Assembly: GCA_963774265.1 (NCBI GenBank)
Contig: CAVZDU010000010.1
Location: forward strand, 1 to 64,000
Reading direction: 5' to 3'
DNA length: 64,000 bases
Source: an uncultured Chloroflexia bacterium
GTDB lineage: Bacteria; Chloroflexota; Anaerolineae; CG2-30-64-16
In this document: positions 10,911 to 59,707 of the stretch, in pieces
Position numbering within the stretch: position 1 is the stretch's first letter
Layout: every line of letters starts with the position of its first letter
Position numbers and translations under genes: made by a program
Notes under the pieces: model-generated
Told to the model about the DNA's origin: nothing
The model's database searches: none
The model's input: only the letters and a program-made list of their open reading frames with translations

Positions 10911-10917
10911 GGGGGGC

Positions 10918-20739: not shown

Positions 20740-20767
20740 CCACATGATCAAAGCAAAGGAGCGCGCC

Positions 20768-33964: not shown

Positions 33965-33971
33965 AGAAAGT

Positions 33972-34544: not shown

Positions 34545-34551
34545 TTTTCTA

Positions 34552-34872: not shown

Positions 34873-34884
34873 GGATACCACCGC

Positions 34885-37002: not shown

Positions 37003-37018
37003 GGCAATACCTGTCTTG

Positions 37019-38764: not shown

Positions 38765-38853
38765 CCGAATTTCTCCGGTTTCAACAGGGCCACGAACAGA
38801 TAGAGCAGTAGCGACAGCGTAATCAGGCCCACAACAACATACATCACGCTCAT
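38761..38853 (-). CDS. kdpF: KdpF peptide (30 aa), not in the ORF track
   Basis: [30 protein letters not shown] carries the YL..ALL.PE.F signature. ATGA overlap with kdpA. Confidence 0.9.
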
Positions 38854-38948
38854 ACGCCACTCCCACTCAGCCGTTCGCACAAAGAAACGAACCCCCAACT
38901 GGCGACAAAGAAACCCAGCGCCAGGCCTATAAACGCGAGGTCAGCCAT
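38850..38948 (-). CDS. Small hydrophobic peptide (32 aa) upstream of kdpF
   Basis: [32 protein letters not shown], with a GGAGG RBS and an ATGA overlap with kdpF. Confidence 0.75.
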
Positions 38949-41534: not shown

Positions 41535-41592
41535 AGATTGAAGATACCCGTTCCAGGTTCAATCTGGAATCTGCAATCTGTAATCTTCAATC
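41529..41592. repeat. Heptamer repeats in inverted arrangement (AAGATTG.../...CAATCT) between nadC and nadA
   Basis: ttgaagattgaagat...ttcaatctggaatctgcaatctgtaatcttcaat. Confidence 0.6.
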
Positions 41593-41606
41593 ACCCTGGA
41601 GGGGCT

Positions 41607-42743: not shown

Positions 42744-42784
42744 TTGACATCTGTTCCCAAGTCGTATAATGTATAATGTATAAC
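42744..42784 (+). promoter_or_regulatory. Promoter of the GntR cluster with three tandem GTATAA(T/C) repeats
   Basis: TTGACA at 42744 and TATAAT at 42765 (15-nt spacer). Repeats gtataat-gtataat-gtataac at 42764-42784. Confidence 0.6.
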
Positions 42785-42871
42785 AATTGAATTCCTCTCA
42801 CGCGCGTCGACGGCATCCGATCGTACGCGTGGTCGCAGCAAGTAAGCCATCTCTGTCTCGAGGCAGTTCAA

Positions 42872-43624
42872 ATGATCGTTCGCCGCATGAGCCGGTCGGA
42901 AGAAGTCGAGCGGGCGCTCCTGGATCAACTGGAGTCGCTTGCCGGTCTTGATGGTCGTCTGCCTACGGAAGCCGAGATCGCCGGGATGTTCGGCGTCAGC
43001 CGCGGCACAGTTCGCGCGGCGGTCGGAGCGTTGGCGACGCGCGGACTGGTGGTGCGGAGGCAGGGCATGGGCACCTTCCTCAACCATATCGCCCATCTGC
43101 GCAACCCCATCGACCAGGCCATCGACTTCTGCGACGTCATTGCACGCAACGGCCGCGAGCCCGGGCGCCGATTTGTCAGGACCGCCATCGAGCCTCCTGG
43201 TCCTGAGGCCGCGGCTGCGCTGGGATTGTTTGACCAGCCTGCGCTCATTCGCCATACGATCTTCACGGCAGATGGCAACCCCGTCATATACTGCGTGAAC
43301 ACGCTCCCGCTGGCTATCGTCACACCTACACTTGCGGAGCGGATCGTCGCCGACCCTGTCATCTCCGAGCCGCTTTACGACTTTCTCGAGAGGGAATGCG
43401 GCCAGCGGCTGGAGTACCACGCTTCCACGATCTGGCCGGCCCTGGCCACTGACTGCAACATGCTTGAGCCGGTCTGCCATCCGCTCTCGCCTGTGTTGGT
43501 GATCGAGGAGACCGGCTTCAACTCGAGTGCGTTGCCCATCCTGCACTCTCGTGAGATGTACCCGGATGCCTTCATGCGTTTTGAGATGATCCGACGTCGA
43601 GGCCGCTCCGTTGAGTGCAACTGA
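42872..43624 (+). CDS. GntR-family regulator (HutC-type, UTRA domain)
   Basis: LPTE..IA..FGVSR.TVR.A...L...GLV.R.QGMGTF, followed by a UTRA-like C-terminus. Confidence 0.9.
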   Translation: MIVRRMSRSEEVERALLDQLESLAGLDGRLPTEAEIAGMFGVSRGTVRAAVGALATRGLVVRRQGMGTFLNHIAHLRNPIDQAIDFCDVIARNGREPGRRFVRTAIEPPGPEAAAALGLFDQPALIRHTIFTADGNPVIYCVNTLPLAIVTPTLAERIVADPVISEPLYDFLERECGQRLEYHASTIWPALATDCNMLEPVCHPLSPVLVIEETGFNSSALPILHSREMYPDAFMRFEMIRRRGRSVECN

Positions 43625-44861
43625 CGCAGCGGCGCAACTCACGCCGACCGCGCTGCGTCGCGACGAGGTTGGTCTGCTCGCGCGTATCTTGCCGGCCCGT
43701 CTGCTGCTGAACGCCCAGTTTCGCTTGGTCTATCCATTTTTGCCCGCTATTGCGCGCGGCCTCGGCGTGCCGCTTGAAACCGCAGCACTACTCATCGCGT
43801 TTCGCGCGGCCTTCGGCGCGATCAGCCCCTTGTTTGGCCTCCTCGCTGACCGGATCGGGCGCAAGCCGCTGATGGTCGTGGGCGTGGCAGCCCTGGTTCT
43901 TGGCGCGGTCGTGGTGGCCTCTGGCCAGGGGTTCGGCGTCGTCTTGCTCGGCTTTGGACTGTTGGGCATCGCGCAGTCGGCCTATGATCCCGCCATGCAG
44001 GCTTATGTCAGTGACGTCGTGCCGCAGGAGAGGCGAGGCCGTGCCCTGGGCATTGTGGAACTTTCCTGGGCTGGATCCTGGCTGATCGGTGTGCCCGCGA
44101 CCGGCTTCCTGATGGCACGCTGGGGGTGGCAATCGCCTTTCGTAGCGATCGCGGTTCTGGGTTTTTTGTGCGTCTTGCTGACGTTGACCATCAGGGAAGT
44201 AGTGCGTCCTCACCTGCACTACGTTGCACGCAGCGAGGCGCAAGCGTCGACTACGCCACTTCGTGGCTCTGCTGAGAATGCTGGGCTGCCTGGTGCCGTG
44301 CTGCCCCGGCCGGTTGTCTTCGCCCTCGCAGCCAGTGCGCTGATTCTCTTTGCCAACGAAACCCTTTTTCTCGTCTACGGCGTCCTCATGGAGGAGCGCT
44401 TCGGCCTGACGCTGGGTGCATTGGGCGTGGCCTCGATCGTGGTCAGCCTGGCGGAGTTGACTGGCGCGAGCGCGGTCGTGGCCTTGGCCGATCGGATGGG
44501 CAAGCGCCGGTCGCTGATCATTGGCTTGTTGTTCAACGCAGTGTGCTTTGCCCTGCTGCCGCTCACTGGCGTTGCCCTGCCCATGGCCCTGGCGGGGCTT
44601 GCCGTCGTCGCGCTGACGTCCGAGTTTTCGGTCGTGACCTCGATACCCTTGCTTTCCGGACTGGCCGATCACTCACGCGGACTGGTCATGGCGTTGCGGA
44701 CCGCCCTCATGTGGGGTATGGTCATCATCGCTTCATTCGTCGCACCCCGGCTGTGGCAAGCGTTCGGTCTGCCAGCAGTGGCGGCAACGTCAGCGGCTTC
44801 CGTTCTGCTGGCCGCGCTGATCGTGTGGCGCGGCATCCAGTCGGACACTCTTTCACTCTGA
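43611..44861 (+). CDS. MFS transporter
   Basis: G.LADRIGRK and ADRMGKRR motif A, about 12 TM helices. Confidence 0.9.
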   Translation: MSATDAAAQLTPTALRRDEVGLLARILPARLLLNAQFRLVYPFLPAIARGLGVPLETAALLIAFRAAFGAISPLFGLLADRIGRKPLMVVGVAALVLGAVVVASGQGFGVVLLGFGLLGIAQSAYDPAMQAYVSDVVPQERRGRALGIVELSWAGSWLIGVPATGFLMARWGWQSPFVAIAVLGFLCVLLTLTIREVVRPHLHYVARSEAQASTTPLRGSAENAGLPGAVLPRPVVFALAASALILFANETLFLVYGVLMEERFGLTLGALGVASIVVSLAELTGASAVVALADRMGKRRSLIIGLLFNAVCFALLPLTGVALPMALAGLAVVALTSEFSVVTSIPLLSGLADHSRGLVMALRTALMWGMVIIASFVAPRLWQAFGLPAVAATSAASVLLAALIVWRGIQSDTLSL

Positions 44862-44900
44862 TTCGCACATCACGTATCACCACCCAAGGAGGCGTTGTAC

Positions 44901-46273
44901 ATGCGTAGCAACTGGTTACCCGAGATCGTCAAGCGGGCGCAATCCGGTCCCTACATGAAGGAGTCCGACTTTGACCTGAAACTGACCCGGCGCATCAAGG
45001 AGTTGGTCCGGGAGAAGGGCATCAAGTACGATGCCAGTAACCTGTGCCCGGCGGACGACGACATGGCCGATCGCGTCTGGGAAGCGGGCCTGCAACTCTT
45101 CGTCGAGATGGGCGCATACTGCCAGTCCACCGAGCGCTGCATCAGATTCACGCGCGCGACGAAGTGTTCGAGCTTCTGCGCCAGGAGCCGGGCGCGGTGA
45201 CACTCGGCACGGGCAAAGACGCGGTGGTGATGCGGCATCGCGGGGTCGAGGATACCCAACGCGCGATCATGCACTCCGGTCCCACCGGTCTGCCCAGCAG
45301 CGAGAAGCACCATCCGTTGATCCTGCTCTCCTGCGCACAGGAGCCGTTGGTCGACTGCCTCGGCGCAGGCTCCGTCTCCACGTATTTCGGCGAGAAGATC
45401 CTGCCGGGCACACCGCTGGAAATTCTCGGCGCGCGCCGCGATGCCTCAGTGGCACGCGAGGCGGTCCGCATGGCTGGTCGCCCTGGCATGCACATTAATG
45501 ATGTCGCAGTGCCTCTTACGTGTGCGGGCAAGATGGCGGCGTGCGATCCCCAGACCGGCCTGCGGCCCTCCGACGGGTTCCTGGTCTCCCAAATGGTCGA
45601 GCTGAAGACGGACTTCGACCAGCTCTCGCGCGTCGCCTATCTGAAAAGCGTCGGCATGGTGAACGTGGACCTGATGACGCCGCTGATCGGCGGCGTGGGC
45701 GGCGCGGCGCCCGGAACGGCGGTGGTCTCAGTGGCAGATCACCTGCTGGGCGTGGTGCTCTACGACTCCGACTATCACATGTTCTCGCTGACCCACCTGC
45801 ACTACGTGAATAACACTGATCCGCTGGGTCTGTGGGTGGAGTCGATGGTCGGACAGGCGCTGGCGCGCAACAGCAAGATCGTGACGCTGAACGATATCTA
45901 CGTCGTCTCCGGCCCCGGCACGAAGGAACTGTTCTACGAATGCGCAGCAGGAGCGGTCGTCACGACTGTCTGCGGATTCAACATGCAGGGCGCGGGCACC
46001 ACGGGTGGCTTCTTCGCCGATCGTGTGACCGGCCTGGAGGCGCGCTTTATCGCCGAGGCGTCGCGCGCGTCGCTGGGCCTGACCCGTCAGGACGCAGCCC
46101 AACTCGTGCAGCAGATTCTGCCTCGCTACCAGGCGACCATCACCAGCCCGAACCGCGGCCGGCCGTTCAATGAGGTGTACAACGTCGAAACCGTGCAGCC
46201 CACTGCGGAGTGGCTCGACATGTACTATGCCGTGAAGGAAGACCTGCGTGGCATGGGCTTGAAGCTGGCGTAG
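44901..46273 (+). CDS. MtmB-family corrinoid methyltransferase without pyrrolysine (copy 1), apparent frameshift near 45155
   Basis: RAQSGP....DFD, PADDDMADRV..AG, GAYC..TER...FT, AGRPGM, ELKTD, GPGT, GLEARF and G.PF.E.Y.V match MtmB. The Pyl-equivalent codon is AAT (Asn) at 45497. Confidence 0.8.
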
Positions 46274-46302
46274 CCCGGCCCATTATCTTAGGAGCAGACC
46301 AA

Positions 46303-46962
46303 ATGAGCATTTCTGATGACATCAAGAGCCGCCTTTCCAATGCGCTCATCGACGGCGACGCGGACCTTGCCGAGGAGGCCACGGTCGAGGCGCTGGGGGC
46401 CGGTGCGGATCCGGTTGCGCTCATCAACGACGTCATGATCCCGGCGTTGACGGTGGTTGGTGACCAATTCCAACGCGGCGAGGTTTTCCTGCCCGAGTTG
46501 ATGATGGCGGGCGATGCGGCGCAACGCGTGTCCAATCACGTTGAGGCGGCCATCGTAGCGCAGGGTAAGACCACCGAGCCGAAGGGCACGGTGGTGATCG
46601 GCACCGTCATGGGTGACATCCACGACATCGGCAAGAACATTGTGGTGACTATGCTCAAGGCGCACGGTTTCAAAGTCGTGGACCTGGGCCGCAATGTCAC
46701 ACCGAGCACCTTCCTGACCGCCGGGCAGGAGAATAGGGCGGACGTCATCGCCATGTCATCCCTGATGACGACCACCCGGCCCATGATCGAGAACACCATC
46801 AATCTCTTCGGCGAAGTCGGCGCGCGCGATAAGTTCAAGATGATCGTGGGCGGCGGCTGCGTGACCGAAGAGTGGGCTGCGACCCTCGGCGTGGACGGCT
46901 ATTCGCCTGATGCAGTGGGCGCGGTCGAGCTGTGCAAGAAGTTCTCTGCCCGGGTGTCTTGA
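46303..46962 (+). CDS. Corrinoid (B12-binding) protein, MtmC/MttC-like (copy 1)
   Basis: Four-helix cap (F..GEVFLPELM), GDIHDIGKN (DxHxxG), SSLMTTT and VGGG. Confidence 0.93.
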   Translation: MSISDDIKSRLSNALIDGDADLAEEATVEALGAGADPVALINDVMIPALTVVGDQFQRGEVFLPELMMAGDAAQRVSNHVEAAIVAQGKTTEPKGTVVIGTVMGDIHDIGKNIVVTMLKAHGFKVVDLGRNVTPSTFLTAGQENRADVIAMSSLMTTTRPMIENTINLFGEVGARDKFKMIVGGGCVTEEWAATLGVDGYSPDAVGAVELCKKFSARVS

Positions 46963-46987
46963 CAATGTCCGTGTGGCCGCATATAGT
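46959..46987 (+). promoter_or_regulatory. Internal near-consensus sigma70 promoter ahead of the second corrinoid/MtmB module
   Basis: TTGACA (46959) - 17 nt - TATAGT (46982). Confidence 0.6.
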
Positions 46988-47034
46988 GGGGCGCAACTCC
47001 CTTTCTGCGGTCCTCTCTTTTTGGCAGGTGACCT

Positions 47035-47718
47035 ATGGATCAATCAGGCAATCAGTCGTCGGAGATGCGGGCTCGTCTCCGAAGCGCAATCGAGGGACTG
47101 GATGAGGCCGACGCGGTAGCCCTTGCTCGCGAGGCGCTGGCGGCCGGTCTGTCGCCGCTGGACTTCTTCAGGGCGGTGATTGAGCCGGAGCTGACCGCGA
47201 TCGGCGACGCCTTTTCCCGGCTTGAGGTCTTCTTGCCCGACCTGATGCGTGCGGGCGTCATCGTCAAGGCCGTGCAGAGCGAGGTGCTGGAGCCCGCCAT
47301 TCGACAGTCGGGCGGCGCCAGCACTTCGGAAGGTGCGGTGGTGATCGGCACGGCCCAGGGCGACATTCACGACATCGGCAAGAATATGGTTGCCCTGATG
47401 CTGCAGGTCAATGGCTTCCGGGTGACCGATCTGGGAACGAATGTGTCGACGCAAGCGGTTCTTGACGCCGCGCGGCGGGAGAACGCGGATATCATCGCGA
47501 TGTCATCGCTGCTCACGACGTCCCTTCCCTTCGTCAAGGATGTGTTGGCACGGCTGGACGCTGCGGGCGAGCGGAAGCGGTTCATGGTGATTGCAGGCGG
47601 CGCGCCGGTGACGGCGGAGTGGTCGCAAGCCGCGGGGCTGGACGGATTTGCGGAAGATGCTGTGGAAGCCGTGTCCATGTGTCGCGGCCTGATGGCGCGG
47701 CGCAAGGGGGCGGCATGA
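47035..47718 (+). CDS. Corrinoid (B12-binding) protein, MtmC/MttC-like (copy 2)
   Basis: VFLPDLM, GDIHDIGKN, SSLLTTS and GGAPV. Confidence 0.93.
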   Translation: MDQSGNQSSEMRARLRSAIEGLDEADAVALAREALAAGLSPLDFFRAVIEPELTAIGDAFSRLEVFLPDLMRAGVIVKAVQSEVLEPAIRQSGGASTSEGAVVIGTAQGDIHDIGKNMVALMLQVNGFRVTDLGTNVSTQAVLDAARRENADIIAMSSLLTTSLPFVKDVLARLDAAGERKRFMVIAGGAPVTAEWSQAAGLDGFAEDAVEAVSMCRGLMARRKGAA

Positions 47719-49097
47719 GAAACACTACCCGTTTACTCGACGTGCTTGACCGGGCCGAAACCGGTCCGATCGTCGAGGAGCTCCAATGGGATATGCAGAT
47801 CGTGCCGCACGCCGTGATGGGCCTTCTGGCCGAATACAAGATCAAGATGCCCGCCGTAGCCGAGTCTGTGGTGACCACAGATGATGCCCTGGCGGATCGG
47901 CTCTTCGAGGCCGGCTTCCGCCTTGCCGAGCAGCTCGGCGCGTTCTGTGTCAGCACCAGCCGGCGGATCCAATTCACCCGCGAGGAGATTCGAGCGGCTT
48001 TGGAGGTCGCGCCGGTCGAAGTGACCATCGGTGAGGGCAACGACCGGGTCACGGAACGTAAGCGGAAGGTCGAGGACCGCCTGCCGCCGTTCATCAAGGG
48101 TGGCGGGGTCGGTACGCCCCTTCCGGAGGACCTCTATCTGCCGGTCACACAGTCCTACGCGCAGGAGCCGTTGATCGATGCGGTCATCAACTGCACATTG
48201 AGCCACGTTTATGGCCGTGAGCTGCGCAGCCGGACGCCCTGGGAGGTGCTGGCTGCATGGCATGAGATCGAGCTGTCCAAGGCGGCATGTAAGCGCGCGG
48301 GCCGGCCGGGCCTGGCCCTGGGCTGCGTAGAGAACGCGGTCTCGGAGATCGGCGAGTTATCCGGCACGTCGCACGGCGGCTTCAGCACCCAGGATTGGCA
48401 TCACATCGCCATGATCTCAGAGTTCAAGACCGATTACATGGCGCTGAGCAAGCTGGCGCACCTGGTGCGCACCGGCAGCGTGATCCACGCCTTCTATAAC
48501 ACCATCTACGGCGGCTCATGCGGCGGGCGGGATGGCATGGCGCTGGCGATCGTCTCGGGCTGCATCCTGCTTCAGATGCTCTACATGACCAATACGCACT
48601 CGGTGTCGCCCGCGCATCCCTTTTATGACAACGACACGACGCCGGAGATCCTCCAGGCCATCAGCCTGGCCCAGCAGGCGCTGGCGCGCAATTCCCGGCT
48701 GATGACCGACGTGGTGATCACCCCTGTGGGTGGTCCCGGCACGAAGACGCTGCTCTACGAGTGCGCGGCGATGGCGATCATGTCGGCAGCCTCGGGCGCG
48801 ACCGGCCTGATCGGCCCGCGCTCCGCAGCCGGCGTCAATATCGCGCACGTGTCAGGGCTGGAGGCGCGTTTCACGGCCGAGGTGGCGCGTGCGGCATCCG
48901 GCATGTCGCGCGGCGATGCCGATGGCATCGTCCGCCTGCTGGTGGACCTGTACAAGCCTGACCTGAACAAGCGGCCCAAGGGCCAATCGTTCCAGGAGGT
49001 GTATGATGTGGTGACGGTCAAGCCGCGGTCCGCGTGGCTTGAGACGTACGAACAGGTGAAGGGCGAGCTCCGGCATATGGGATTGCCGCTCGCTTGA
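47715..49097 (+). CDS. MtmB-family corrinoid methyltransferase without pyrrolysine (copy 2)
   Basis: RAETGP, DDALADRLFEAG, GAFC..T.R.I.FT.EEI, AGRPGL, EFKTD, GPGT and SGLEARF..EVA. The Pyl-equivalent codon is GGC (Gly) at 48321. Confidence 0.85.
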   Translation: MRNTTRLLDVLDRAETGPIVEELQWDMQIVPHAVMGLLAEYKIKMPAVAESVVTTDDALADRLFEAGFRLAEQLGAFCVSTSRRIQFTREEIRAALEVAPVEVTIGEGNDRVTERKRKVEDRLPPFIKGGGVGTPLPEDLYLPVTQSYAQEPLIDAVINCTLSHVYGRELRSRTPWEVLAAWHEIELSKAACKRAGRPGLALGCVENAVSEIGELSGTSHGGFSTQDWHHIAMISEFKTDYMALSKLAHLVRTGSVIHAFYNTIYGGSCGGRDGMALAIVSGCILLQMLYMTNTHSVSPAHPFYDNDTTPEILQAISLAQQALARNSRLMTDVVITPVGGPGTKTLLYECAAMAIMSAASGATGLIGPRSAAGVNIAHVSGLEARFTAEVARAASGMSRGDADGIVRLLVDLYKPDLNKRPKGQSFQEVYDVVTVKPRSAWLETYEQVKGELRHMGLPLA

Positions 49098-49129
49098 AAC
49101 GTGCACATACGCACATATAGGAGGAGAAC

Positions 49130-50199
49130 ATGTTCAATCGAGTGATGGTCGTGCTCATGGTCGTTGCGCTGGTCCTAACGGCATGCGCGCCGGCCGCTGC
49201 CCCCACGCAAGCGCCTGCACAGGCCGCGCCAACCACGGCCCCTGCTGCGCCCGCGCCAACCAAGGCGCCTGAAGCAGCCGCTCCCGCGGCAGACAAGGGC
49301 AGCCTGGCCGTAATTCTGACCGGCCCTTGGGACGACAACTCCTGGAACGAGGCGGGGTACACCGCCGCGCAGGAACTCGGCAAGCAGGGCGTGAAGATCG
49401 CTTACTCTGAAAACGTGTCCGATGCCGATGCGCCGCGCGTGCTCCGCGAGTATGCCGACAAGGGCTTCCAGATGATCATCGCACACTCCTTTAGCTTCCA
49501 GGACGCCACGTTCCAGGTGGCGACGGAGTACCCGAAGGCCAACTTCGCCTGGGGTGGCGGCATCAAGAAAACCGCCAAGAACGTCGCCGACTATGATCAG
49601 CCGTTCTATCAGGCAGCCTTTCCCGTCGGCGTTATCGCGGGCCACATGAGCAAGACGGGCAAGCTGGGAGCGCTTTATGGCTTCGACATCCCGGTGTGCC
49701 ACGCGATGGGCGAGGCGCTGCTGGCCGGCGCCAAGACCGTCAACCCGAATGCGCAATTGATCGTGACAGCGGTGGGCGACTGGGTGGACGTGGCTAAGGC
49801 TAAGGAAGCCGCGCTGGCGCAGGCCGACGCGGGCGTCGACTTCTGGGTCGAATGTGGTGAGGGCCCGGCTCTGGGCACCATCGAGGCAGCTAAGGAACGC
49901 GGTGGCTATGTAACCGGCTACGTCGGTGACATGACTGAGAACGGTCCCGATGTCGTCCTGACGAACATCATGTGGGACCTGGTGCCCATGTTCAGCAAGA
50001 TGCTCGAGCAGACCCTCGACGGTTCGTTCGACAACCCATGGTACAACTACGGTGTGCCCCAGGGGGCATTGAAGATCAAGTACAACGATGCCTTGAAGAG
50101 CAAGATCCCCCCGAGGCGCTGGCTGCCGCGGAGAAGGTTTTTGAGGATATTAAGTTGGGCAAGTTCGAAGTGCCCTTCGTGGGCGAAGCAGCGAAGTAG
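49130..50199 (+). CDS. BMP/PnrA-family ABC substrate-binding lipoprotein (nucleoside/purine type), apparent frameshift near 50110
   Basis: Lipobox LTAC, Pro/Ala linker, D.SWN..G and GA..VNP. The second frame gives the end ...FEVPFVGEAAK-stop at 50199. Confidence 0.85.
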
Positions 50200-50205
50200 C
50201 ATCGC

Positions 50206-50228
50206 AGCGCAAGGGCACACCTTGCGCT
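50206..50228 (+). terminator. Hairpin directly after the binding-protein gene (terminator or mRNA stabiliser)
   Basis: agcgcaagg-gcaca-ccttgcgct. Confidence 0.5.
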
Positions 50229-50238
50229 AAGTCGGAGT

Positions 50239-50344
50239 AAGCCACAGAGGACGCAGTGCGCACGGAGATCAGGAGAGACCAGCCGGGCAGGACCCCTGCT
50301 CGTTTCTTGCACCATCTCTGAGTTCTCAGTGCCCTCTGTGGCTT
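50239..50344. repeat. Imperfect palindromic intergenic element with 9-nt-period arms
   Basis: aagccacagaggacgcagtgcgcacggagat ... atctctgagttctcagtgccctctgtggctt (outer 12 bp perfectly inverted). Related to the copy at about 29825-29853. Confidence 0.65.
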
Positions 50345-50369
50345 CGATCCGTGCAGGAGGCGTTCTGCG

Positions 50370-51916
<1,547 letters not shown>

Positions 51917-51920
<4 letters not shown>

Positions 51921-52991
51921 CGGCAGTCAAGATCGAGCGGAGCCGTACTGCGCAGGATGGCGCTCCCGCCTGGCTGCTCACCCTTGGCGCACCGCTGATC
52001 GGTGTGGCTGCAGGCCTGCTCATTGGCGCGCTATTAATCCTGCTTGCCGGCGCAGACCCGATCAAAGCGTACGCGGCCATGATGCGCGGTGCGTTCGGGG
52101 GCCGGCGGCAGATCGAAGAGACGCTGCTGAAGACTGCGCCGCTGCTGCTCATGGGGTTGGGGCTGACTGCGGCATTCCGCGGCGCGCGTATGGAACATCG
52201 GCGGCGAAGGGCAGTACTATATGGGAGCCCTGGCCGGCGGCGCCGTCGCGCTGAATTTTGCTGACCAATGGCCGCGGGTGATCTTGATCGTGGTTATGCT
52301 CCTGGCAGGCGTGCTCGGCGGCGCGCTATGGGCTGCGCTGGCGGCTCTTTTCAAGATCCGTCGCGGCATCAACGAAATCATCAGCACCCTCATGCTAAAC
52401 TACATCGCAATCCTCTTTATGGAGTACATGGCGCGCGGTCCTCTTCAGGAACCGGGAGGCTATCTGCCTGAGAGCGCCCAGTTGGCGGCTGCCGCTCGCA
52501 TGCCCGCGCTCTTTGGGAGCCGAATTCACGTTGGCGTCATCATCGCGCTGCTGATGATACCTGTTGTATATGCCCTGCTCTGGTCGACCCCCCTGGGATT
52601 TCGCCTGCGTGCCGTGGGCTCGCGATCGAGCGTTGCACGTTATGCGGGCATCAAAGTCGAGCGGCTTATCTTGTTTGTGCTCATGTTTTCCGGTGGGCTG
52701 GCAGGCTTAGCAGGCATCATCGAGGTGAGTTCGCTGCACACGCGGCTCAAGGGGAGTATCTCTGGCGATTATGGCTTCAGCGGCATCCTGGTGGCGCTCC
52801 TGGGCCGGATGCACCCCGTTGGTGTAGCGGTCGCAGCTGTCTTCTTTGCAGCGTTGACGATCGGCGCACAATCCATGCACGTGGTCTACCAGTTGCCGGT
52901 CACCCTTGCAGGCGCGGTGCAGGCGGTTGTCGTGCTTTGCGTCCTGGCTGCCGACGCCATCGCCCACGGCAAGTTTCACAGGGGGCAGTGA
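51917..52991 (+). CDS. ABC permease (NupB/YufP-like), apparent frameshift near 52185
   Basis: PLLLMGLG, WNIGGEGQ (second frame), NEIISTLMLNY, GFRLRAVG and GF.GILVALLG. Confidence 0.88.
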
Positions 52992-53980
52992 TGGATTGGA
53001 GCCTTGTCCTCAACTGGACCTTTGTGATTGCGCTCTTCACCGCTGCCATTCGCCTGGCTGTGCCGGTGCTGCTCGCCACACTCGGTGAAATCGTGACCGA
53101 GCGTTCGGGCGTCATGAACCTGGGACTGGACGGAGTGATGGTTGTGGGCGGTGTCTCTGGCTTCCTGGTTGCCTACTTCCTGCAAAGCGGCCCCTTGGCG
53201 GGGCTCAGCCAATGGCTGGGTCTCCTCGCAGGGGCGGCAGCAGGTATGCTCATGGGGGTCATCGTCGCGGTTTTCGCGGTGACCCTACGCGCGGACCAGG
53301 TGATCACCGGTGTGACGCTGGTCGTGTTCGGCCATGGGCTCGCCAACTACATCTACCGCCAGCAGTTCAGTTCGCTGACCGCGCGCACGAACGGCCTGCC
53401 GCCCTATGAGGTGCCCCTGCTCAGCCGGATCCCGGTCGTGGGCGATATCCTCTTCAAGCACGATGCGACCGTGTACATCACGGCGTTGCTGGTGGTCGTG
53501 GTTTGGTTCTTCCTGTCGCGCACAACCTGGGGCCTGAAGATCCGTTCGGTCGGTGAGAATCCTGCCGCGGGTGAAACATCGGGCCTCAAAGTTGGCGCGG
53601 TGCGCTATGCCGCGGCGCTAATCGGCACAGCGCTGGCCGGCTTCGGTGGTGCGGTGCTCACCGTGGTGCAATTGCGCATGTTTCGCGAGGGCATCATGGG
53701 CGGCCGTGGCTGGATCGCCGTCGCGCTGGTAATCTTTGCGCGCTGGAAGCCCGGTCTGGCACTCGTGGGCGCGCTGCTGTTCGGCCTGGCCGACGCGGTT
53801 CAGTATCGTATTCAGGCGCTCAGCCAGGTCGGGCGCGGGGCAGGGACCATTCCCTACGAGTTCTTGCTCATGCTACCATATGTCCTGACCATCCTGGCGC
53901 TCCTGGCTCGCAGCAATCGCCGGGGACAGACGCAGGCGCCGGAGGTGTTGGGCCGACCGTACGTCAAGGGTGAGCTCTAA
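52991..53980 (+). CDS. ABC permease (NupC/YufQ-like)
   Basis: GE...ERSGV.NLG.DG.M, GL.IR.VGENP, GRGWIA.ALV.F and MLPY. Confidence 0.92.
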   Translation: MDWSLVLNWTFVIALFTAAIRLAVPVLLATLGEIVTERSGVMNLGLDGVMVVGGVSGFLVAYFLQSGPLAGLSQWLGLLAGAAAGMLMGVIVAVFAVTLRADQVITGVTLVVFGHGLANYIYRQQFSSLTARTNGLPPYEVPLLSRIPVVGDILFKHDATVYITALLVVVVWFFLSRTTWGLKIRSVGENPAAGETSGLKVGAVRYAAALIGTALAGFGGAVLTVVQLRMFREGIMGGRGWIAVALVIFARWKPGLALVGALLFGLADAVQYRIQALSQVGRGAGTIPYEFLLMLPYVLTILALLARSNRRGQTQAPEVLGRPYVKGEL

Positions 53981-54015
53981 TTCAACGCCGAATTGCAGCA
54001 ATGGAGTAAGCAAAA

Positions 54016-54828
54016 GTGACTAGAATCAATGAATACCACCAGCCACCGAACCTCGTAGAGGCCCTGGCTTTGCTGGGTCGGAGCCATCCCATCACACGCC
54101 CCCTGGGCGGCGGCACGCACTATCGCCGGGGTTGCGGCTGGCCAGAGGCCGTTGTCGATTTGTCGGCCCTGAAACTCGACGGCGTCACACAAGGGGAAAA
54201 CGCATGGGCGATCGGGGCGACCGCGACGCTCGAACGGCTTGCGGCTGCCGAAGAGCTTCCCGCCGCGCTGCGCCGGGCTGCGCTCCGGCAGGCGCCGCGC
54301 AACAGCCGCCAGCGCGCAACGGTCGGCGGCGCGATTGCCACGAGGGACTCTGGCACGCTGCTCGTCTGTCTGCTTGCGCTCGATGCCCGGCTCATGGTGG
54401 AGCCCGCCAGCCGGCTCATTCCGCTTCAGTCATATCTGCAAGAGCCTGAGGAGAGCGGTCACCTGATCACCGCCTGTTTTCTTCCCAACGGACGCACGTG
54501 TGCATTCGAGGAGATCAGCCGGACGCCTTCAGACGCGCCGATCCTCGCCGTTGCGGTTGGGGCGGAAGTCGGAGCGACCGATTTGCGCGGCGTTCTAGCT
54601 GCCGCTGGCGGCGCGGACCAACCGGCTGCCGTAGTGCCCGGCGCCGTGCAATTTCTTCAAGCGGACGTTGACCACGAGATCGCTGCGTTGGCGGCGGCCA
54701 TGACTCAAGCGCCGTGGCGCGACGACGGGCGAGGCACTGCGGCATACCGCACGGCCATGACGCCTATCCTGTTGAGGCGTGCCATGGAGTCGCTTCTGGC
54801 CTCGCAGGAGGTGTCCCATGCAGGTTAA
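54016..54828 (+). CDS. Molybdo-hydroxylase FAD-binding subunit (YgfM/XdhB-like)
   Basis: YHQP.NL.EAL, GGGT, R..ATVGG and DD.RG.A.YR. Confidence 0.8.
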   Translation: MTRINEYHQPPNLVEALALLGRSHPITRPLGGGTHYRRGCGWPEAVVDLSALKLDGVTQGENAWAIGATATLERLAAAEELPAALRRAALRQAPRNSRQRATVGGAIATRDSGTLLVCLLALDARLMVEPASRLIPLQSYLQEPEESGHLITACFLPNGRTCAFEEISRTPSDAPILAVAVGAEVGATDLRGVLAAAGGADQPAAVVPGAVQFLQADVDHEIAALAAAMTQAPWRDDGRGTAAYRTAMTPILLRRAMESLLASQEVSHAG

Positions 54829-57800
54829 TGTTCATGTCAACGGCCAGCCGCTGGTGTTGGCCGGCGAACCCGGCATCACTCTGCTGGACGCACTGCGTGG
54901 AGCCGGTTTCTTCAGCGTCAAGCGCGGCTGCGACCATGGTGAGTGTGGCGCATGTGCGATATTGCTCGATGGCAAGCAGGTGAATTCGTGCCACGTATTG
55001 CTGGCCCAGGTCGATGGCTGCTGCATCCAGACCGCTGAGGGACTGGGTGAGGCCGCGGAGCAGGGATGGCGGCACACGGCCGGGCTACACCCGCTGCAAC
55101 AGGCATTTATCGAGTTGGGCGCGGTCCAGTGTGGCTACTGCACGCCGGCCCAATTGTTGGCAGCGCAGGCGTTGCTTGATCGTAAGGGCTATGGGGGAAC
55201 TGATCCGCAGCCGGTCAGCGAGGCCGAAGTGCGCGAGGCTCTGTCAGGTGTGCTCTGCCGCTGCACCGGCTACGCCAAACCGGTCGCGGCGGTGTTGAAG
55301 GCGGCCGCGCGTCTGCGCGGCGAAGAGCCACTGGCCGGCGGTGGCACGGCGCAGCCTAAGGATGCGGGCGGCATACCGGTTGCCCTCGATTTTGCAGGGG
55401 GCGAACCTCGCACCGAGGGCCTGCCCGGCCCTGAGCCGGCCCGGGGCGGCGTCATCACCCGGACGGAGGCGCCTCCCGTGCTGTTGGTTGCAGCCGTCAG
55501 CGAGGAGCTTCGCGTAGTCGGCAAGTCCGTCACAAAGGTCGACGCCGCCAAACTTAGCCAGGGCAAGCCGGCATTCACCGACGATCTCGAGATGCGCGGC
55601 ATGTTGATCGGCAAGATCATGCACAGCCCGGTGGCCCATGCGCGTATCAAGTCCATTGACGTCACGGCTGCACGTCAACTGCCTGGCGTAGCCGCTGTGC
55701 TAACGCATAAGGACTTGCCCCGCGTCGCCCACTCTACCGCCGGTCAAACGCATCCGCTGCCTTCTCCGCTGGATACGTTCTCGCTGGACGAGAAAGTGCG
55801 CTTCGTCGGCGACCGCGTGGCGCTCATTGCGGCCGAATCTGAAGAGATCGCTCTGGCCGCGATGGAGCTCATCCAGGTCGAGTACGAGGAGCTTCCCGCG
55901 ATCATCGACCCGCGCGATGCACTCAAGCCCGGCGCATCGATCATCCATGACGAGCCGGACTTTGTGGATTTCGCAGAATCGGATCGGACGCGCAATCTGG
56001 CTGCTCATATCTTCGTGGACATCGGGAACGTGGACCAGGGCTTTGCGGAGGCCGATCACATCTTCGAGGGCGAGTATTTCGTTCCAAAGGTGCAGCAGGC
56101 CTCCATCGAACCACACGTAGTCATCACCTATTGGGACGAGGACGACCGGTTGGTGGTCCGCACCTCCACGCAAGTGCCGTTCCATGCACGGCGCATCCTG
56201 GCGCCCATCCTGGGCCTGCCTGTCAAGCGCATCCGCGTCATCAAGCCTCGTGTCGGCGGTGGGTTCGGCGGCAAGCAGGAAGTGCTCATCGAAGACGCAG
56301 CCGCTCACTTGACCATCGCAACCGGCCGGCCCGTTCGCTTGGAGTATACGCGCGAGGAGGAATTCATCGCCGCGCGCTCTCGTCACCCGATGCGGGTGCG
56401 ACTCAAGACTGGTGTGACGGCGGATGGTGTGATCACGGCCAACGAGATGCACGTCCTTTCAGATACCGGCGCCTATGGGTCGCACGCAATGACGGTGGCC
56501 GGCAACACCGGACACAAGGCAATGGCTCTGTATGTCGGTGATGGCCCGTACCGGCAAAACCCCAATATCCGTTTCACGGCAGAGGTGGTTTATACGAATA
56601 CGGCGCCGTCCGGCGCATTTCGCGGTTACGGTGTGCCGCAGGGTTACTTCCCCTTGGACACACAGATGGAGCGCATTGCCCGGGCGCTCGAGATGGATCC
56701 GCTGGCGTTCCGCCTGAAGAACGCGGTGCGCGCGGGTGAGGCCCAGCCATTCTCCAAGGCATGGTCCGAAGGCCGTGAACCGGTGCCCGAGTATATCGAG
56801 ACGTGCGCCCTGGAAGAATGCGCGCATCGCGGGGCAGAGCTGATCGGGTGGCGCGAGAAGCGGGGAAACAGGAATTGGCACGCGGTGCCCGGCCGTCCCA
56901 ATTTGCGCCGCGGTGTCGGCGCCGCCTTGGCCATGCAGGGCACGGCCATCCCCTACATCGACATGGGCGGTGCGTCGCTCAAGATGAACGACGACGGCTC
57001 CTTCAACCTGCTTGCCGGCGCCACGGATATCGGCACCGGCTCAGATACGATATTGGCACAGATGGTCGCCGAGACGGTCGGTTGCAATGTCGAGGACATC
57101 GTCGTCTACTCATCGGACACTGACTTTACCCCCTTCGATGTTGGGGCGTATGCCTCGTCAACCACGTATGTCTCAGGCGCAGCCGCCACACGGGCCGCGC
57201 AACAAGTTGCCGAGCAGATTCGCGAAGTGGCAGCAGCATTGCTGGGAGGTGAAGTGACGCCCGCTGAGATCCGGTTGGCCGACCGCCGCGCCTGGGCGCC
57301 GGATGGGCACAGCGTCACGCTGGAAGACGTCGCTTTGCAGTCGCTGCACAAGGCCAATCAGCGCCAGATCATGGCCGTCGCCTCGTTCAATTCGCCCGTG
57401 TCTCCGCCGCCTTTCGCGGCCCAGTTTGCCGAGGTGACGGTCGACATCGAGACCGGCGAAGTTCGTGTGCAGAAGTTCGTCACCGTTATGGACTCCGGCG
57501 TAATCGTCAACCCGGTGGCCGCGACCGGCCAGGTGGAGGGCGCGGTGTCTCAGTCGCTCGGCTATGCCTTGTGCGAGGAGATGCCCTATGATAGTGCGGG
57601 CCGGCCTCTCATGCATGATCTGCGGGACTATCACATCTTCACCGCGGATGAGATGCCTGAACTCGTCACTGAGTTCGTGCCGACCGTCGAGCCCACGCAT
57701 CCATATGGTGTGAAAGCGGTGGGTGAAGTGCCCATGGATGGCGTGGGTCCGGCAATCGCTAACGCCATCTACGACGCAGTTGGCGCCTGGATCAACGAGT

Positions 57801-57850
57801 TGCCGGCCACGCCTGAGCGCGTGTGGCGCGCCATGCACGCAAGTTTTTGA
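54818..57850 (+). CDS. Xanthine-dehydrogenase-family molybdoenzyme with a fused 2x[2Fe-2S] domain (XdhD-like)
   Basis: GC..GECGAC, QCGYC and CRCTGY. Mo-domain motifs GGGFGGK, AFRGYG, DIGTGS and GVKAVGE. Confidence 0.92.
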   Translation: MQVNVHVNGQPLVLAGEPGITLLDALRGAGFFSVKRGCDHGECGACAILLDGKQVNSCHVLLAQVDGCCIQTAEGLGEAAEQGWRHTAGLHPLQQAFIELGAVQCGYCTPAQLLAAQALLDRKGYGGTDPQPVSEAEVREALSGVLCRCTGYAKPVAAVLKAAARLRGEEPLAGGGTAQPKDAGGIPVALDFAGGEPRTEGLPGPEPARGGVITRTEAPPVLLVAAVSEELRVVGKSVTKVDAAKLSQGKPAFTDDLEMRGMLIGKIMHSPVAHARIKSIDVTAARQLPGVAAVLTHKDLPRVAHSTAGQTHPLPSPLDTFSLDEKVRFVGDRVALIAAESEEIALAAMELIQVEYEELPAIIDPRDALKPGASIIHDEPDFVDFAESDRTRNLAAHIFVDIGNVDQGFAEADHIFEGEYFVPKVQQASIEPHVVITYWDEDDRLVVRTSTQVPFHARRILAPILGLPVKRIRVIKPRVGGGFGGKQEVLIEDAAAHLTIATGRPVRLEYTREEEFIAARSRHPMRVRLKTGVTADGVITANEMHVLSDTGAYGSHAMTVAGNTGHKAMALYVGDGPYRQNPNIRFTAEVVYTNTAPSGAFRGYGVPQGYFPLDTQMERIARALEMDPLAFRLKNAVRAGEAQPFSKAWSEGREPVPEYIETCALEECAHRGAELIGWREKRGNRNWHAVPGRPNLRRGVGAALAMQGTAIPYIDMGGASLKMNDDGSFNLLAGATDIGTGSDTILAQMVAETVGCNVEDIVVYSSDTDFTPFDVGAYASSTTYVSGAAATRAAQQVAEQIREVAAALLGGEVTPAEIRLADRRAWAPDGHSVTLEDVALQSLHKANQRQIMAVASFNSPVSPPPFAAQFAEVTVDIETGEVRVQKFVTVMDSGVIVNPVAATGQVEGAVSQSLGYALCEEMPYDSAGRPLMHDLRDYHIFTADEMPELVTEFVPTVEPTHPYGVKAVGEVPMDGVGPAIANAIYDAVGAWINELPATPERVWRAMHASF

Positions 57851-57856
57851 CATAAG

Positions 57857-57887
57857 GACCTTCGAGGTCTCCGAGACCTCGAAGGTC
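57857..57887. repeat. Perfect 15-bp-arm palindrome whose arms are themselves near-palindromes (REP-like)
   Basis: gaccttcgaggtctc-c-gagacctcgaaggtc. Confidence 0.75.
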
Positions 57888-57908
57888 TTCTCACAGGGGA
57901 CAGGTAGC

Positions 57909-59705
57909 GTGTATCGAATCGACATGGAGCCAATCGGCCGGCGCAGCGAGGTGATGCCCGGTCAAACGCTGTTGGATGCCGCCAGGCAGGGCGGCGTTGA
58001 TCTGACCGCGCTTTGCGGTGGCGAGGGCTGGTGCCACGGCTGCGAGGTGCGGGTCATTGAAGGCCAGCTATCTCCCGTGACGGCGTCTGAACAAGCGGCT
58101 CTGGGCGCGGAGCAACTCGCCCAGGGTTTTCGACTGGCGTGTCAGGCGGAACCGCTCGGCCATGTGAAGATCGACATCCCGCCTGAATCGTTGGCCACGC
58201 AGCAGCGGCTCCAGATCGAAGGGCAGGAGGCCGAGACCGCGGTCGATCCGGTGGTCCGGCAAGTTGATGTAACGGTTTCTGCTGCTACATTGCACGATCT
58301 GCGCGCCGACACGGTTCGCCTCCGGGAGGCACTGGATGAGGACGTTCGGTTTGCGTTGCCCGTGCTCCAGACTCTTTCACCCAAGCTGCGAGAGCAAGAC
58401 TGGACGGCTCGCTTGGCTGTGCGGGATGGCGAGGTCGTCGCTCTCGCACCGGCCGGTGTGCGGCTGCTCGGGTTGGCCGTCGACGTTGGCACGACAAAGC
58501 TGGCGGCATACCTGGTGGATCTGGAGACCGGCCGCACAGTCGCGAAAGGCGGCGCGCCGAACCCGCAAATCGCCTACGGCGAGGATGTCGTCAGCCGCAT
58601 CAGCTACACGATGACACACACCCACGGCGCAGAGACGCTACAGAGCCGTCTGATCGAGACGCTCAACGAGCTTGCCGAAAGCCTGTGCAGCCAGGCCGGG
58701 CGCACGACTCAGCACATCGTAGATGCCGTCATCGTGGGCAACACTGCGATGCAACATCTTTTTGCGCGGCTGCCTGCCAGCCAGCTTGCGTTGGCGCCGT
58801 ACGTGGCCGCGGCCAGTGAGGCGCTTTCCTTGCGAGCTTCGGAGCTCGGTCTGCATTTTGCCCCGGCGGCGTACGTCTACCTCCCTCCGAACATCGCAGG
58901 TTATGTTGGCGGTGATCACGTTGCCATGGCGTTGGGCACCCACGCGTGGGAGACTGTAAAGACCATCGCGGCGCTGGATATTGGCACCAACACCGAAGTC
59001 ACGGTGACGCGCGGCGGTCGCTCGTGGTGCTGTTCGTGTGCGTCGGGTCCTGCCTTTGAAGGGGCGCACATCCGTGATGGCATGCGCGCCGCGCCTGGCG
59101 CTATCGAAAAGGTGCGGTTTGCTGACGGCAAGGTGCACCTCAAGACCATCGATGGGCAGCCCCCGGTGGGCATCTGCGGTTCTGGCATCATGGATATCGT
59201 GAGTGAGCTCGTGCGGACAGGCACGATCGATCGCAAGGGCGCATTCCAGGCTGACGCACCGGGCGTAAGCCATGATGGCGCGCTGCTCGGCTTCAACCTT
59301 GCTCCTGCGGAGGCAACGGGACATGGCCGGGCGATCAGGGTGGACCGGAAGGACATCAACGAAATCCAGTTGGCGAAAGCCGCCATCCGCACCGGCGTAG
59401 AAATCCTGTTATCCGAGGCGGGGGCAACACACGACGACATCGACGCGTTCATTGTGGCTGGCGCGTTTGGCACCTATCTGGATCTGGACAGCAGCATCCG
59501 GGTGGGAATGTTCCCGCCGTTGCCGCTGCACAAATTCTCTCAGGTGGGCAATGCTGCCGGCACGGGCGCGCGCCAATTGCTCGTCTCGCGTGCGCGGCGG
59601 GCTGACGCAAGTCGGCTCGCGTCCCGCGTCACTTACGTGGAACTGACGATCCACCCGGATTTTTCAAAGCGCTACATGTCGGCGCTCTACTTCGCAAGGT
59701 CGTGA
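57909..59705 (+). CDS. Reductive activator of corrinoid proteins (RACo/RamA-type ASKHA ATPase with an N-terminal [2Fe-2S] domain)
   Basis: CGGEGWCHGC...RLACQ ferredoxin, DVGTT, G.DV.SRI, DIGTN.E, AS.GPAFEG, GICGSG, QLAKAAI and AGAFG. GTG start inferred. Confidence 0.9.
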   Translation: MYRIDMEPIGRRSEVMPGQTLLDAARQGGVDLTALCGGEGWCHGCEVRVIEGQLSPVTASEQAALGAEQLAQGFRLACQAEPLGHVKIDIPPESLATQQRLQIEGQEAETAVDPVVRQVDVTVSAATLHDLRADTVRLREALDEDVRFALPVLQTLSPKLREQDWTARLAVRDGEVVALAPAGVRLLGLAVDVGTTKLAAYLVDLETGRTVAKGGAPNPQIAYGEDVVSRISYTMTHTHGAETLQSRLIETLNELAESLCSQAGRTTQHIVDAVIVGNTAMQHLFARLPASQLALAPYVAAASEALSLRASELGLHFAPAAYVYLPPNIAGYVGGDHVAMALGTHAWETVKTIAALDIGTNTEVTVTRGGRSWCCSCASGPAFEGAHIRDGMRAAPGAIEKVRFADGKVHLKTIDGQPPVGICGSGIMDIVSELVRTGTIDRKGAFQADAPGVSHDGALLGFNLAPAEATGHGRAIRVDRKDINEIQLAKAAIRTGVEILLSEAGATHDDIDAFIVAGAFGTYLDLDSSIRVGMFPPLPLHKFSQVGNAAGTGARQLLVSRARRADASRLASRVTYVELTIHPDFSKRYMSALYFARS

Positions 59706-59707
59706 GA

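Follow-up and report, generated by a model that had tools for sequence, protein, structure and literature searches.

We analysed a 64,000-nucleotide stretch of DNA (hereafter the window; contig C10:1-64000) from a 5.5-Mb genome, G000, which is assembled in 10 contigs with a completeness of 84% and whose nearest relatives are metagenome-assembled genomes (MAGs) labelled Anaerolineae or Anaerolineales. The window holds a gene cluster in which two pyrrolysine-free methyltransferases of the MtmB family, each with its own corrinoid protein, stand together with a BMP-type ATP-binding cassette (ABC) importer and enzymes of N-heterocycle families; on balance, we propose that it serves to import and demethylate a methylated purine-like base. 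The gene set had been named in a first-pass annotation of the window, and Pfam and NCBIfam matches place all of it there, in a single orientation. Every gene between 42872 and 61276 lies on the + strand, separated by short gaps or overlapping its neighbour, and the Pfam E-values of the cluster genes (1e-13 to 1e-104) exclude chance matches. An amidohydrolase gene lies ~2.3 kb upstream of the GntR gene, with nadC and nadA in between. The features are as follows, with reading frames judged against intact orthologues in the related loci L005, L006 and L041:

39245-40597, + strand: amidohydrolase of the 8-oxoguanine deaminase family (four frame pieces, in frames 2/3/1/2 and 81-95% identical, by tblastn with the intact orthologue L041:1568-2920)
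40680-41534, + strand: NadC (quinolinate phosphoribosyltransferase), a flanking gene (PF01729, PF02749)
41559-42681, + strand: NadA-like gene, frameshifted, a flanking gene tentatively named (tblastn with L006:3727-4914, pieces in frames 3 and 1)
42872-43624, + strand: GntR regulator with a UTRA effector domain (PF00392, 48.9 bits; PF07702, 56 bits)
43611-44861, + strand: major facilitator superfamily (MFS) transporter (PF07690, 141.5 bits; efflux-type NCBIfam models match weakly, all below cut-off)
44901-46273, + strand: MtmB-like methyltransferase 1 (MtmB1), pyrrolysine-free (PF05369 in two frames)
46303-46962, + strand: corrinoid protein 1 (CP1), cognate to MtmB1 (PF02310, PF02607, DxHxxG motif in GDIHDIGK)
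47035-47718, + strand: corrinoid protein 2 (CP2), cognate to MtmB2 (PF02310, PF02607, DxHxxG motif in GDIHDIGK)
47715-49097, + strand: MtmB-like methyltransferase 2 (MtmB2), pyrrolysine-free, intact (PF05369)
49130-50199, + strand: BMP/PnrA-family substrate-binding lipoprotein of the ABC importer (PF02608, 157.1 bits; gathering score 24.1)
50370-51920, + strand: ABC ATPase with two ATP-binding cassettes (PF00005, two stretches)
51917-52991, + strand: ABC permease 1 (PF02653)
52991-53980, + strand: ABC permease 2 (PF02653)
54016-54828, + strand: FAD-binding subunit of a molybdenum (Mo) hydroxylase (PF00941, PF03450)
54818-57850, + strand: fused 2x[2Fe-2S] and molybdopterin subunit of a xanthine-dehydrogenase-family hydroxylase (PF00111, PF01799, PF01315, PF02738, PF20256)
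57857-57888, no strand: near-perfect palindrome with arms of ~15 nt, within the 73 nt that separate the Mo hydroxylase gene from RACo
57924-59705, + strand: RACo-type reductive activator with an N-terminal 2Fe-2S domain (PF14574, PF17651, PF17650 and PF00111, all above cut-offs)
59702-61276, + strand: NadB-like flavoprotein, a flanking gene tentatively named, whose start overlaps the RACo stop codon (PF00890, 281.9 bits; PF02910)

The corrinoid methyl-transfer module recognised at first pass is borne out by matches to PF05369 and to B12-binding and RACo domains: two MtmB-family first methyltransferases (MT1), two cognate corrinoid proteins and a RACo. Against PF05369 (cut-off 25), MtmB2 scores 349 bits, the larger frame piece of MtmB1 263.7 bits and the intact MtmB1 orthologue L006:7146-8513 326.8 bits. 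The two methyltransferases share 36% identity, and no NCBIfam model names either of them. MtmB2 aligns over its full length with MtmB of Methanosarcina barkeri (1L2Q; 258 bits) and carries a Gly at the position of Pyl202, where the alignment places an Asn in MtmB1. Neither gene has an internal stop codon inside the PF05369 match, and the in-frame UAG that would encode pyrrolysine at this position is absent from both; free monomethylamine is therefore an unlikely substrate. Each MT1 has a corrinoid protein with the DxHxxG motif beside it, CP1 scoring 179.5 bits against TIGR02370, under the cut-off of 215.3. The RACo gene falls below the models for RamA (TIGR04270; 133.9 bits, cut-off 500) and AcsV (NF040756; 419 bits, cut-off 800). 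The whole thus resembles the MtmB/MtmC/RamA system of M. barkeri (1L2Q, 1NTH) in the fold and family of its MT1, in the corrinoid protein and in the ATP-dependent activator; it differs in the replacement of Pyl202 by Gly or Asn, in the RACo type of the activator with its 2Fe-2S domain, and in having no MtbA-type second methyltransferase in the cluster. Elsewhere in the genome (G000:C2:581591-582967, L076) lies one more MtmB paralogue without pyrrolysine, which shares 31% identity with MtmB2; a corrinoid protein gene immediately precedes it, and genes for GntR, a distant amidohydrolase and a Mo hydroxylase (34%) stand within 10 kb.

We next compared the locus with related genomes. Searches with MtmB2 and MtmB1 returned 16 and 24 loci, which were merged by genome after leaving out L020 (31% identical), which left 29 other genomes for comparison, all with orthologues that are at least 59% identical. 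MtmB1 and MtmB2 each occur in 23 of the 29. CP1 accompanies MtmB1 in 22 of 23 genomes, directly 3' of it in the listed gene orders, and CP2 accompanies MtmB2 in all 23, directly before it. A BMP gene lies in the fetched flank of 22 of the 29 genomes and, where at least 2 kb follow the last methyltransferase or corrinoid gene, in 20 of 22; in one of the two exceptions the contig ends 2.4 kb on, and in the other the opposite strand encodes a BMP-type permease set that is more distantly related. This linkage is kept through repeated rearrangement:

Window: MtmB1-CP1-CP2-MtmB2-BMP
Many loci: CP2-MtmB2-MtmB1-CP1-BMP
Other loci: CP2-MtmB2-(URO-D-like MT2)-(CobW-like)-GntR-BMP-...-deaminase
A further group: GntR-MtmB2-CP2-BMP-MtmB1-CP1-(pterin MT2)-(activation-domain-like protein)-RACo-MFS-ABC

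(MT2 denotes the methyl-corrinoid:acceptor methyltransferase.) The BMP gene thus stands after CP1, after MtmB2 or between both pairs, and there are loci in which this importer is accompanied by only one of the two MtmB/corrinoid pairs, be it the first or the second. In a genome of another family, the same set recurs at 50-55% identity; there, MtmB2-like genes (53-55%) flank the BMP-ABC operon, and a three-subunit Mo hydroxylase directly follows an MtmB gene, with an amidohydrolase in addition. The MtmB family itself is rare in the phylum: a phylum-wide family search found it in 9 of 401 sampled genomes, G000 included, and six of the eight others hold distant homologues only (28-36%) and lack a BMP gene in the stretch that was fetched.

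The rest of the neighbourhood is less constant. Behind the permeases or close to them, loci carry one or more ring enzymes: the amidohydrolase is found in 7 of the 29 genomes, and the Mo hydroxylase and a Rieske/VanA_C oxygenase in 4 each. GntR (at least 50% identity) and MFS (at least 40%) genes arranged as in the window are confined to 6 of the 29, all of the closest clade, with weaker matches (28-43% identity) in some more distant loci. Among the nad genes, nadC occurs in 3 and nadA in 4 of the 29, once more within the closest clade only; the flanks fetched from these genomes contain no nadB and the more distant clusters no nad gene, and these genes look like the location at which the cluster sits rather than part of a pathway. 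The recurrence put up for checking at first pass holds for the importer and, in fewer genomes, for the deaminase and the Mo hydroxylase, and is limited to the closest relatives for the nad genes.

The nearest solved relatives of the importer's binding protein are the Brucella BMP protein 3S99 (111 bits) and AtzT (6PI5; 105 bits), and the nucleoside binder PnrA is much more distant (37 bits). According to the accessible part of the AtzT study (PMC6834077), 3S99 was modelled with adenine, and AtzT binds guanine at 110 nM through Tyr45, Trp194, Ser97, Phe98(N), Glu165, Asn218 and Asn220 and takes hydroxyatrazine and ammeline as further ligands. Pocket residues were mapped onto AtzT by sequence alignment at ~30% identity. 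All 23 distinct MtmB-linked binding proteins carry Trp, Ser/Thr-Phe, Cys(-His), Trp, Cys and Glu at the AtzT ligand positions: the aromatic sandwich is preserved, as is the Ser-Phe pair, and Glu165, Asn218 and Asn220 are replaced by Cys (then His), Cys and Glu in 23 of 23, so that the seven ligand-contacting residues of the AtzT type are not all present. The signature differs in the three other BMP paralogues of this genome, which has four BMP genes in 5.5 Mb, and in a 25%-identical one. A planar aromatic compound is thus the likely ligand, to judge from the conserved pocket positions, and a ligand different from that of AtzT is expected.

We then searched reciprocally with the binding protein, which gave 79 loci, 76 of them new. 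An MtmB homologue is present in 25 of these 76, a VanA-type Rieske oxygenase in 19, a DIOX_N/2-oxoglutarate (2OG) oxygenase in 25, and none of the three in 11:

Chloroflexota-labelled: 35 loci; MtmB 23, Rieske 7, 2OG 0, none 7
Cyanobacteria: 30 loci; MtmB 0, Rieske 8, 2OG 20, none 3
Others: 11 loci; MtmB 2, Rieske 4, 2OG 5, none 1

Five of the seven Chloroflexota-labelled loci without any of the three contain a corrinoid protein, RACo or MT2-like gene, and several lie at a contig end; the last group includes MAGs labelled Desulfohalobiaceae and Chromatiaceae with MtmB genes. In the cyanobacterial locus L110, the BMP gene is immediately preceded by a gene for a DIOX_N/2OG-Fe(II) oxygenase; the nearest match of the 2OG enzyme is thymine dioxygenase (219 bits), and the cyanobacterial binding proteins keep the pocket signature with the last Glu changed to Gln. 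Removal or oxidation of a methyl group on a nucleobase-like ring would be an activity common to a corrinoid methyltransferase, an NdmA-related Rieske enzyme and a thymine-dioxygenase-like enzyme, an analogy that fits the demethylation proposal without being proof of it. As an observation in its own right, Leptolyngbyaceae, Nodosilinea and Phormidesmis (L110-L154) carry this importer subfamily in an operon with a 2OG oxygenase (20 of 30 loci) and sometimes a VanA-type Rieske enzyme (8 of 30), and the function of the importer/2OG operon appears to be undescribed.

The enzymes encoded beside the importer point to a purine-like ring. The intact orthologue of the window amidohydrolase (L041:1568-2920) scores 703.8 bits against the 8-oxoguanine deaminase model NF006055 (cut-off 532), which supports that part of the earlier assignment, and, with this orthologue included, amidohydrolases of four loci pass the same cut-off (704, 631, 603 and 607 bits). 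None of them passes the SsnA, guanine deaminase or TRZ/ATZ models of NCBIfam, the orthologue reaching 136.6 bits against SsnA TIGR03314 (cut-off 455.5) and SsnA models overall giving ~134-137 bits against cut-offs of 444-455. The labels XdhD-like, YgfM-like and SsnA-like are not supported, all three falling below their cut-offs: the Mo hydroxylase scores 681.4 bits against TIGR03313 (XdhD; cut-off 1101.9) and the FAD subunit 72.2 bits against TIGR03312 (YgfM; cut-off 241.5). Five Pfam domains place the Mo hydroxylase in the wider xanthine-dehydrogenase family, with 703.1 bits against XdhA NF043082 (cut-off 780), and among solved structures it comes nearest to chains of 4-hydroxybenzoyl-CoA reductase and CO dehydrogenase. 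The window resembles the E. coli xdhD-ygfM-ssnA locus in that a cog0402-type amidohydrolase occurs together with an FAD subunit and a fused Fe-S/Mo hydroxylase, and differs from it in that the three equivalog-type models stay below cut-off and the amidohydrolase passes 8-oxoguanine deaminase instead.

At the position of the Mo hydroxylase, sister loci encode a Rieske enzyme that, among solved structures, is closest to SxtDIOX (251 bits) and SxtT (238), followed by NdmA (145) and NdmB (119). Of these, the Sxt enzymes act as hydroxylases on the purine-derived skeleton of saxitoxin, and the Ndm enzymes as N-demethylases of caffeine. The Pseudomonas putida CBB5 enzymes NdmA and NdmB (6ICK, 6ICL) are homologous to this Rieske enzyme and catalyse the same overall purine N-demethylation as the one proposed here; unlike the window system, they depend on O2 and release formaldehyde, and the window has no such gene. 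At three loci, a distance of a few kb separates the cluster from genes for xanthine phosphoribosyltransferase and IMP dehydrogenase, the former followed by a tentative GMP synthase gene, a proximity that may be coincidental. Adenine- and guanine-binding relatives of the binding protein, the 8-oxoguanine deaminase cut-off and the nearest relatives of the Rieske enzyme together strengthen the purine-like character that had been proposed at first pass.

A methyl-transfer chain also needs an acceptor enzyme. Outside the window, the genome contains four matches to PF00809 (pterin-binding), two of which are 43-46% identical to the MT2 of sister clusters, where the MT2 genes are pterin-binding, URO-D-like or homocysteine methyltransferases. 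In the MtmB2-only loci L011, L013, L014 and L017, the MT2 candidate is URO-D/MtaA-like with a C-terminal thioredoxin-like domain and is followed by a CobW-type GTPase. We considered whether the two MtmB paralogues act as MT1 and MT2, and rejected this, as sister clusters with both paralogues also have a pterin-binding MT2. Genome-wide, there are 24 URO-D-family and 25 B12-binding-domain matches, so the genome is rich in corrinoid methyltransferase systems; four of the 24 URO-D matches lie on the same contig, 10-33 kb past the window end. The genome also encodes a haem-copper oxidase (COX1, G000:C3:106288-107567), evidence of a capacity for aerobic respiration, and the host is therefore probably not a strict anaerobe. 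The word anaerobic, applied to the pathway at first pass, is thus doubtful for the organism; the chemistry of cobalamin methyl transfer would run without O2 all the same.

Altogether, these results make it somewhat more likely than not, as a reading of gene content and homology, that the cluster imports a methylated purine-like base, demethylates it in a cobalamin-dependent manner and passes it on to deamination and hydroxylation. The BMP-type ABC system would import the methylated planar base; MtmB1 and MtmB2 would each move a methyl group to the Co(I) of their own corrinoid protein, from one compound or from two related compounds or positions; RACo would re-reduce inactivated corrinoid; a pterin-binding methyltransferase encoded elsewhere in the genome would transfer the methyl to tetrahydrofolate; and the 8-oxoguanine-deaminase-family amidohydrolase and the Mo hydroxylase would handle the demethylated base. 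Of this, the sequences themselves show the genes and their families, the lack of pyrrolysine and the conserved importer link; that the imported compound donates the methyl, that it is purine-like, which way the methyl flows and in what order the steps run are inferred. Because the partner amidohydrolase belongs to the 8-oxoguanine deaminase family, we favour N-methylguanines (7-methylguanine, N2-methyl- and N2,N2-dimethylguanine) as candidate substrates, followed by methyladenines and methylxanthines. Compared with the pathway first outlined for this locus, the module, the importer link and the purine-like flavour are retained, and the trigonelline alternative and the E. coli-type labels find no support. 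That two chemically different methyl groups are removed had been pure inference, and each pair is found in some loci as the only one beside this importer.

Among characterised proteins, the closest in kind is MtqB of Methanococcoides methylutens Q3c, which the accessible part of its description (PMC13044021) presents as the first MtmB without pyrrolysine whose function was demonstrated, its substrates being tetramethylammonium and choline. Public data contain roughly a thousand pyrrolysine-free MtmB homologues; the tree given there holds 1,061 non-redundant MtmB-family members, with a function for a single pyrrolysine-free clade. Compared by description only, MtqB and MtqC resemble the window pairs as a pyrrolysine-free PF05369 member with its own corrinoid protein, and differ in being archaeal, in feeding coenzyme M and methanogenesis, and in being described outside any BMP, deaminase or Mo hydroxylase context (PMC13044021). 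The pyrrolysine-free MttB superfamily, exemplified by MtgB for glycine betaine, offers a bacterial parallel for corrinoid-dependent N-demethylation that feeds tetrahydrofolate, and loss of pyrrolysine goes with new substrates in it, as far as the available portions of two papers state (PMC13044021; PMC13080624). It is a protein family other than MtmB, with quaternary-amine substrates and no heterocycle context. A literature search that covered few subscription journals returned no paper on corrinoid-dependent demethylation of methylated purines, and the mlp gene-cluster preprint (PMC10418091) makes no mention of MtmB or BMP. A 2026 preprint reports, in its accessible part, 13CH4 from methyl-labelled caffeine in anoxic sediment with Anaerolineae enriched, and names no enzyme there (10.64898/2026.01.06.697959).

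Several observations weigh against a cobalamin-dependent demethylation of purine-like bases. The substrate steps are predicted from gene neighbourhood and homology, and MtqB, the sole characterised pyrrolysine-free MtmB, uses acyclic quaternary amines and not heterocycles in the part of its description at hand (PMC13044021). Since the residues with which AtzT contacts guanine are replaced, guanine itself is not predicted as the ligand, nor is adenine bound in the AtzT manner. MtmB is absent from all 30 cyanobacterial importer loci, and such MtmB-free loci imply that the ligand need not be methylated. The Rieske enzymes may be ring hydroxylases that replace the Mo hydroxylase, and not demethylases, since Rieske and MtmB genes co-occur in some genomes. 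The window holds no MT2, a gap that went unnoticed at first pass, with no match to PF00809 or PF01208, and the amidohydrolase (7/29) and Mo hydroxylase (4/29) accompany the cluster in few genomes. Several cluster genes are frameshifted, and reads directly support an assembly error at one break only. Finally, the counts overstate independence, the related genomes being kin and mostly Chloroflexota; the rearrangements are a stronger argument for linkage than the counts.

Within the same overall system, the donor could be something other than a purine: a methylated pyrimidine, pterin, s-triazine, creatinine-like ring or O-/S-methylated heteroaromatic. The Cys, Cys and Glu/Gln that replace the guanine-contacting residues would suit such a donor, as would the binding of hydroxyatrazine and ammeline by AtzT noted above (PMC6834077, in its accessible part), the resemblance of the amidohydrolase to TRZ/ATZ hydrolases, which stays below their cut-offs, and the kinship of the cyanobacterial partner to thymine dioxygenase, a pyrimidine enzyme. 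The amidohydrolases nevertheless pass the 8-oxoguanine deaminase model and not the others, the Rieske partners have their nearest relatives among enzymes that act on compounds with a purine skeleton, and the xanthine phosphoribosyltransferase and IMP dehydrogenase genes near three loci point, weakly, in the same direction. We therefore regard a non-purine donor as unlikely, though it is the alternative to be taken most seriously.

It is slightly less plausible, and likewise unlikely, that the region consists of two unrelated adjacent operons: an MFS-fed unit for demethylation of quaternary amines or simple methylamines (GntR, MFS, MtmB1, CP1, CP2, MtmB2 and RACo) and an ordinary unit that takes up and breaks down purines (BMP-ABC, FAD/Mo hydroxylase and deaminase). 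The MFS gene stands directly before MtmB1, and MtqB, on the available text, acts on tetramethylammonium and choline (PMC13044021). The genome has MtmB-free BMP genes near a Mo hydroxylase (contig C1) and near an amidohydrolase (contig C6), and cyanobacteria possess the importer subfamily without MtmB. A sigma-70-like promoter match lies between CP1 and CP2 (46959-46987, + strand; TTGACA, 17 nt, TATAGT; 11 of 12 positions) and a terminator-like hairpin 3' of the BMP gene; both scans gave chance-level numbers, with 4 promoters found against 2.9 expected and 12 terminators against 11.2. Against this split, the importer stands beside MtmB/corrinoid genes in 20 of 22 informative genomes despite the rearrangements, several loci place the BMP gene between both methyltransferase pairs, and RACo follows the Mo hydroxylase in the window. 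The MFS gene, in turn, reaches at least 40% identity in 6 of the 29 genomes only, with weaker MFS genes (33-37%) inside several more distant clusters, and the MtmB-linked binding proteins form a pocket-signature group of their own, unlike the other BMP paralogues of the genome. Two further observations concern the region as a whole: the palindrome at 57857-57888, whose 16-nt core is found just twice genome-wide, might serve as an operator, form an RNA hairpin or mark a processing site, and Rfam gave no match at gathering score over 38000-64000, so that no cobalamin riboswitch was found.

A locus decaying in this host, with real frameshifts and a non-functional pathway, is very improbable. Relative to intact orthologues, the reading frames between 39 and 53 kb are interrupted nine times or more. 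Three indels fall within the cluster proper, as compared with L005 and L006: two extra bases in a CG repeat of MtmB1 (~45157), one C lost from a C-run of the BMP gene (a 1-nt homopolymer deletion, ~50110) and one extra base in permease 1 (~52180). Upstream, the amidohydrolase has three frameshifts and the NadA-like gene is broken into at least two frame pieces. Four DNA runs, each covering a small share of the stretch and none reaching 52180, were used to check these positions. A 151-nt short-read contig with zero mismatches contains the missing C of the BMP gene, at 50106, so at least this frameshift is an assembly error, the only one that zero-mismatch reads directly contradict; a 376-nt contig of a ~96%-identical relative is without the two extra MtmB1 bases. 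The housekeeping gene COX1 is likewise split, into five frame pieces with one internal TGA. Because of these three observations, the frame breaks look like long-read assembly errors and not decay. Moreover, the indels sit in homopolymers or short repeats, 10 contigs with yet only 84% completeness are typical of uncorrected long-read assemblies, and 81-95% protein identity to the orthologues is maintained across the breaks.

An N-methylpyridinium substrate such as trigonelline or N-methylnicotinamide, raised at first pass on account of the flanking nad genes, is the least credible alternative: nadC and nadA lie directly upstream, the NadB-like gene overlaps the RACo stop codon and a cationic donor would be chemically good on general grounds, but the nad genes are restricted to the closest clade as counted above, and the more distant clusters lack them and keep purine-type enzymes as conserved partners.

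Elsewhere in the window, a 1088-aa fusion (20744-24010, + strand) joins a serine hydroxymethyltransferase (PF00464, 412 bits) to a glycine-cleavage T/aminomethyltransferase folate-binding region (PF01571, 256 bits; PF08669), an unusual one-carbon (C1)/folate fusion that is followed by an S-adenosylmethionine-methyltransferase-like gene. Phosphofructokinase and 4HBT thioesterase domains share one 578-aa frame (9628-11364, + strand), a fusion that could be an artefact of the indel-rich assembly. A potassium-transport operon occupies 30570-38866 (- strand), with KdpA (PF03814, 812 bits) and a KdpB-like P-type ATPase confirmed; the genes beside them look like kdpC and kdpDE from their translations.

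If MtmB1 and MtmB2 demethylate purine-like bases, cobalamin-dependent methyl transfer would gain a new class of substrate through these two clades, which would also provide an O2-independent counterpart of the Rieske caffeine demethylases. We also put forward, tentatively and as a possibility we would not yet bet on, a broader reading in which a single subfamily of importers takes up methylated nucleobases and, depending on the lineage, works alongside one of three unrelated chemistries of methyl removal, namely cobalamin/MtmB in Chloroflexota and some Proteobacteria, NdmA/SxtT-related Rieske enzymes, and thymine-dioxygenase-like 2OG enzymes in cyanobacteria, with the MtmB1 and MtmB2 clades as the first corrinoid-dependent N-demethylases of heteroaromatic bases. 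Were this true, a large orphan branch of the MtmB family would gain a function and an undescribed trait of nucleobase demethylation and salvage would come into view, with 7-methylguanine or N2-methylguanines from RNA and DNA turnover as example substrates. Methyl groups of nucleic-acid modification or of purine alkaloids would then enter the C1 metabolism of Chloroflexota in sludge, soil and sediment.

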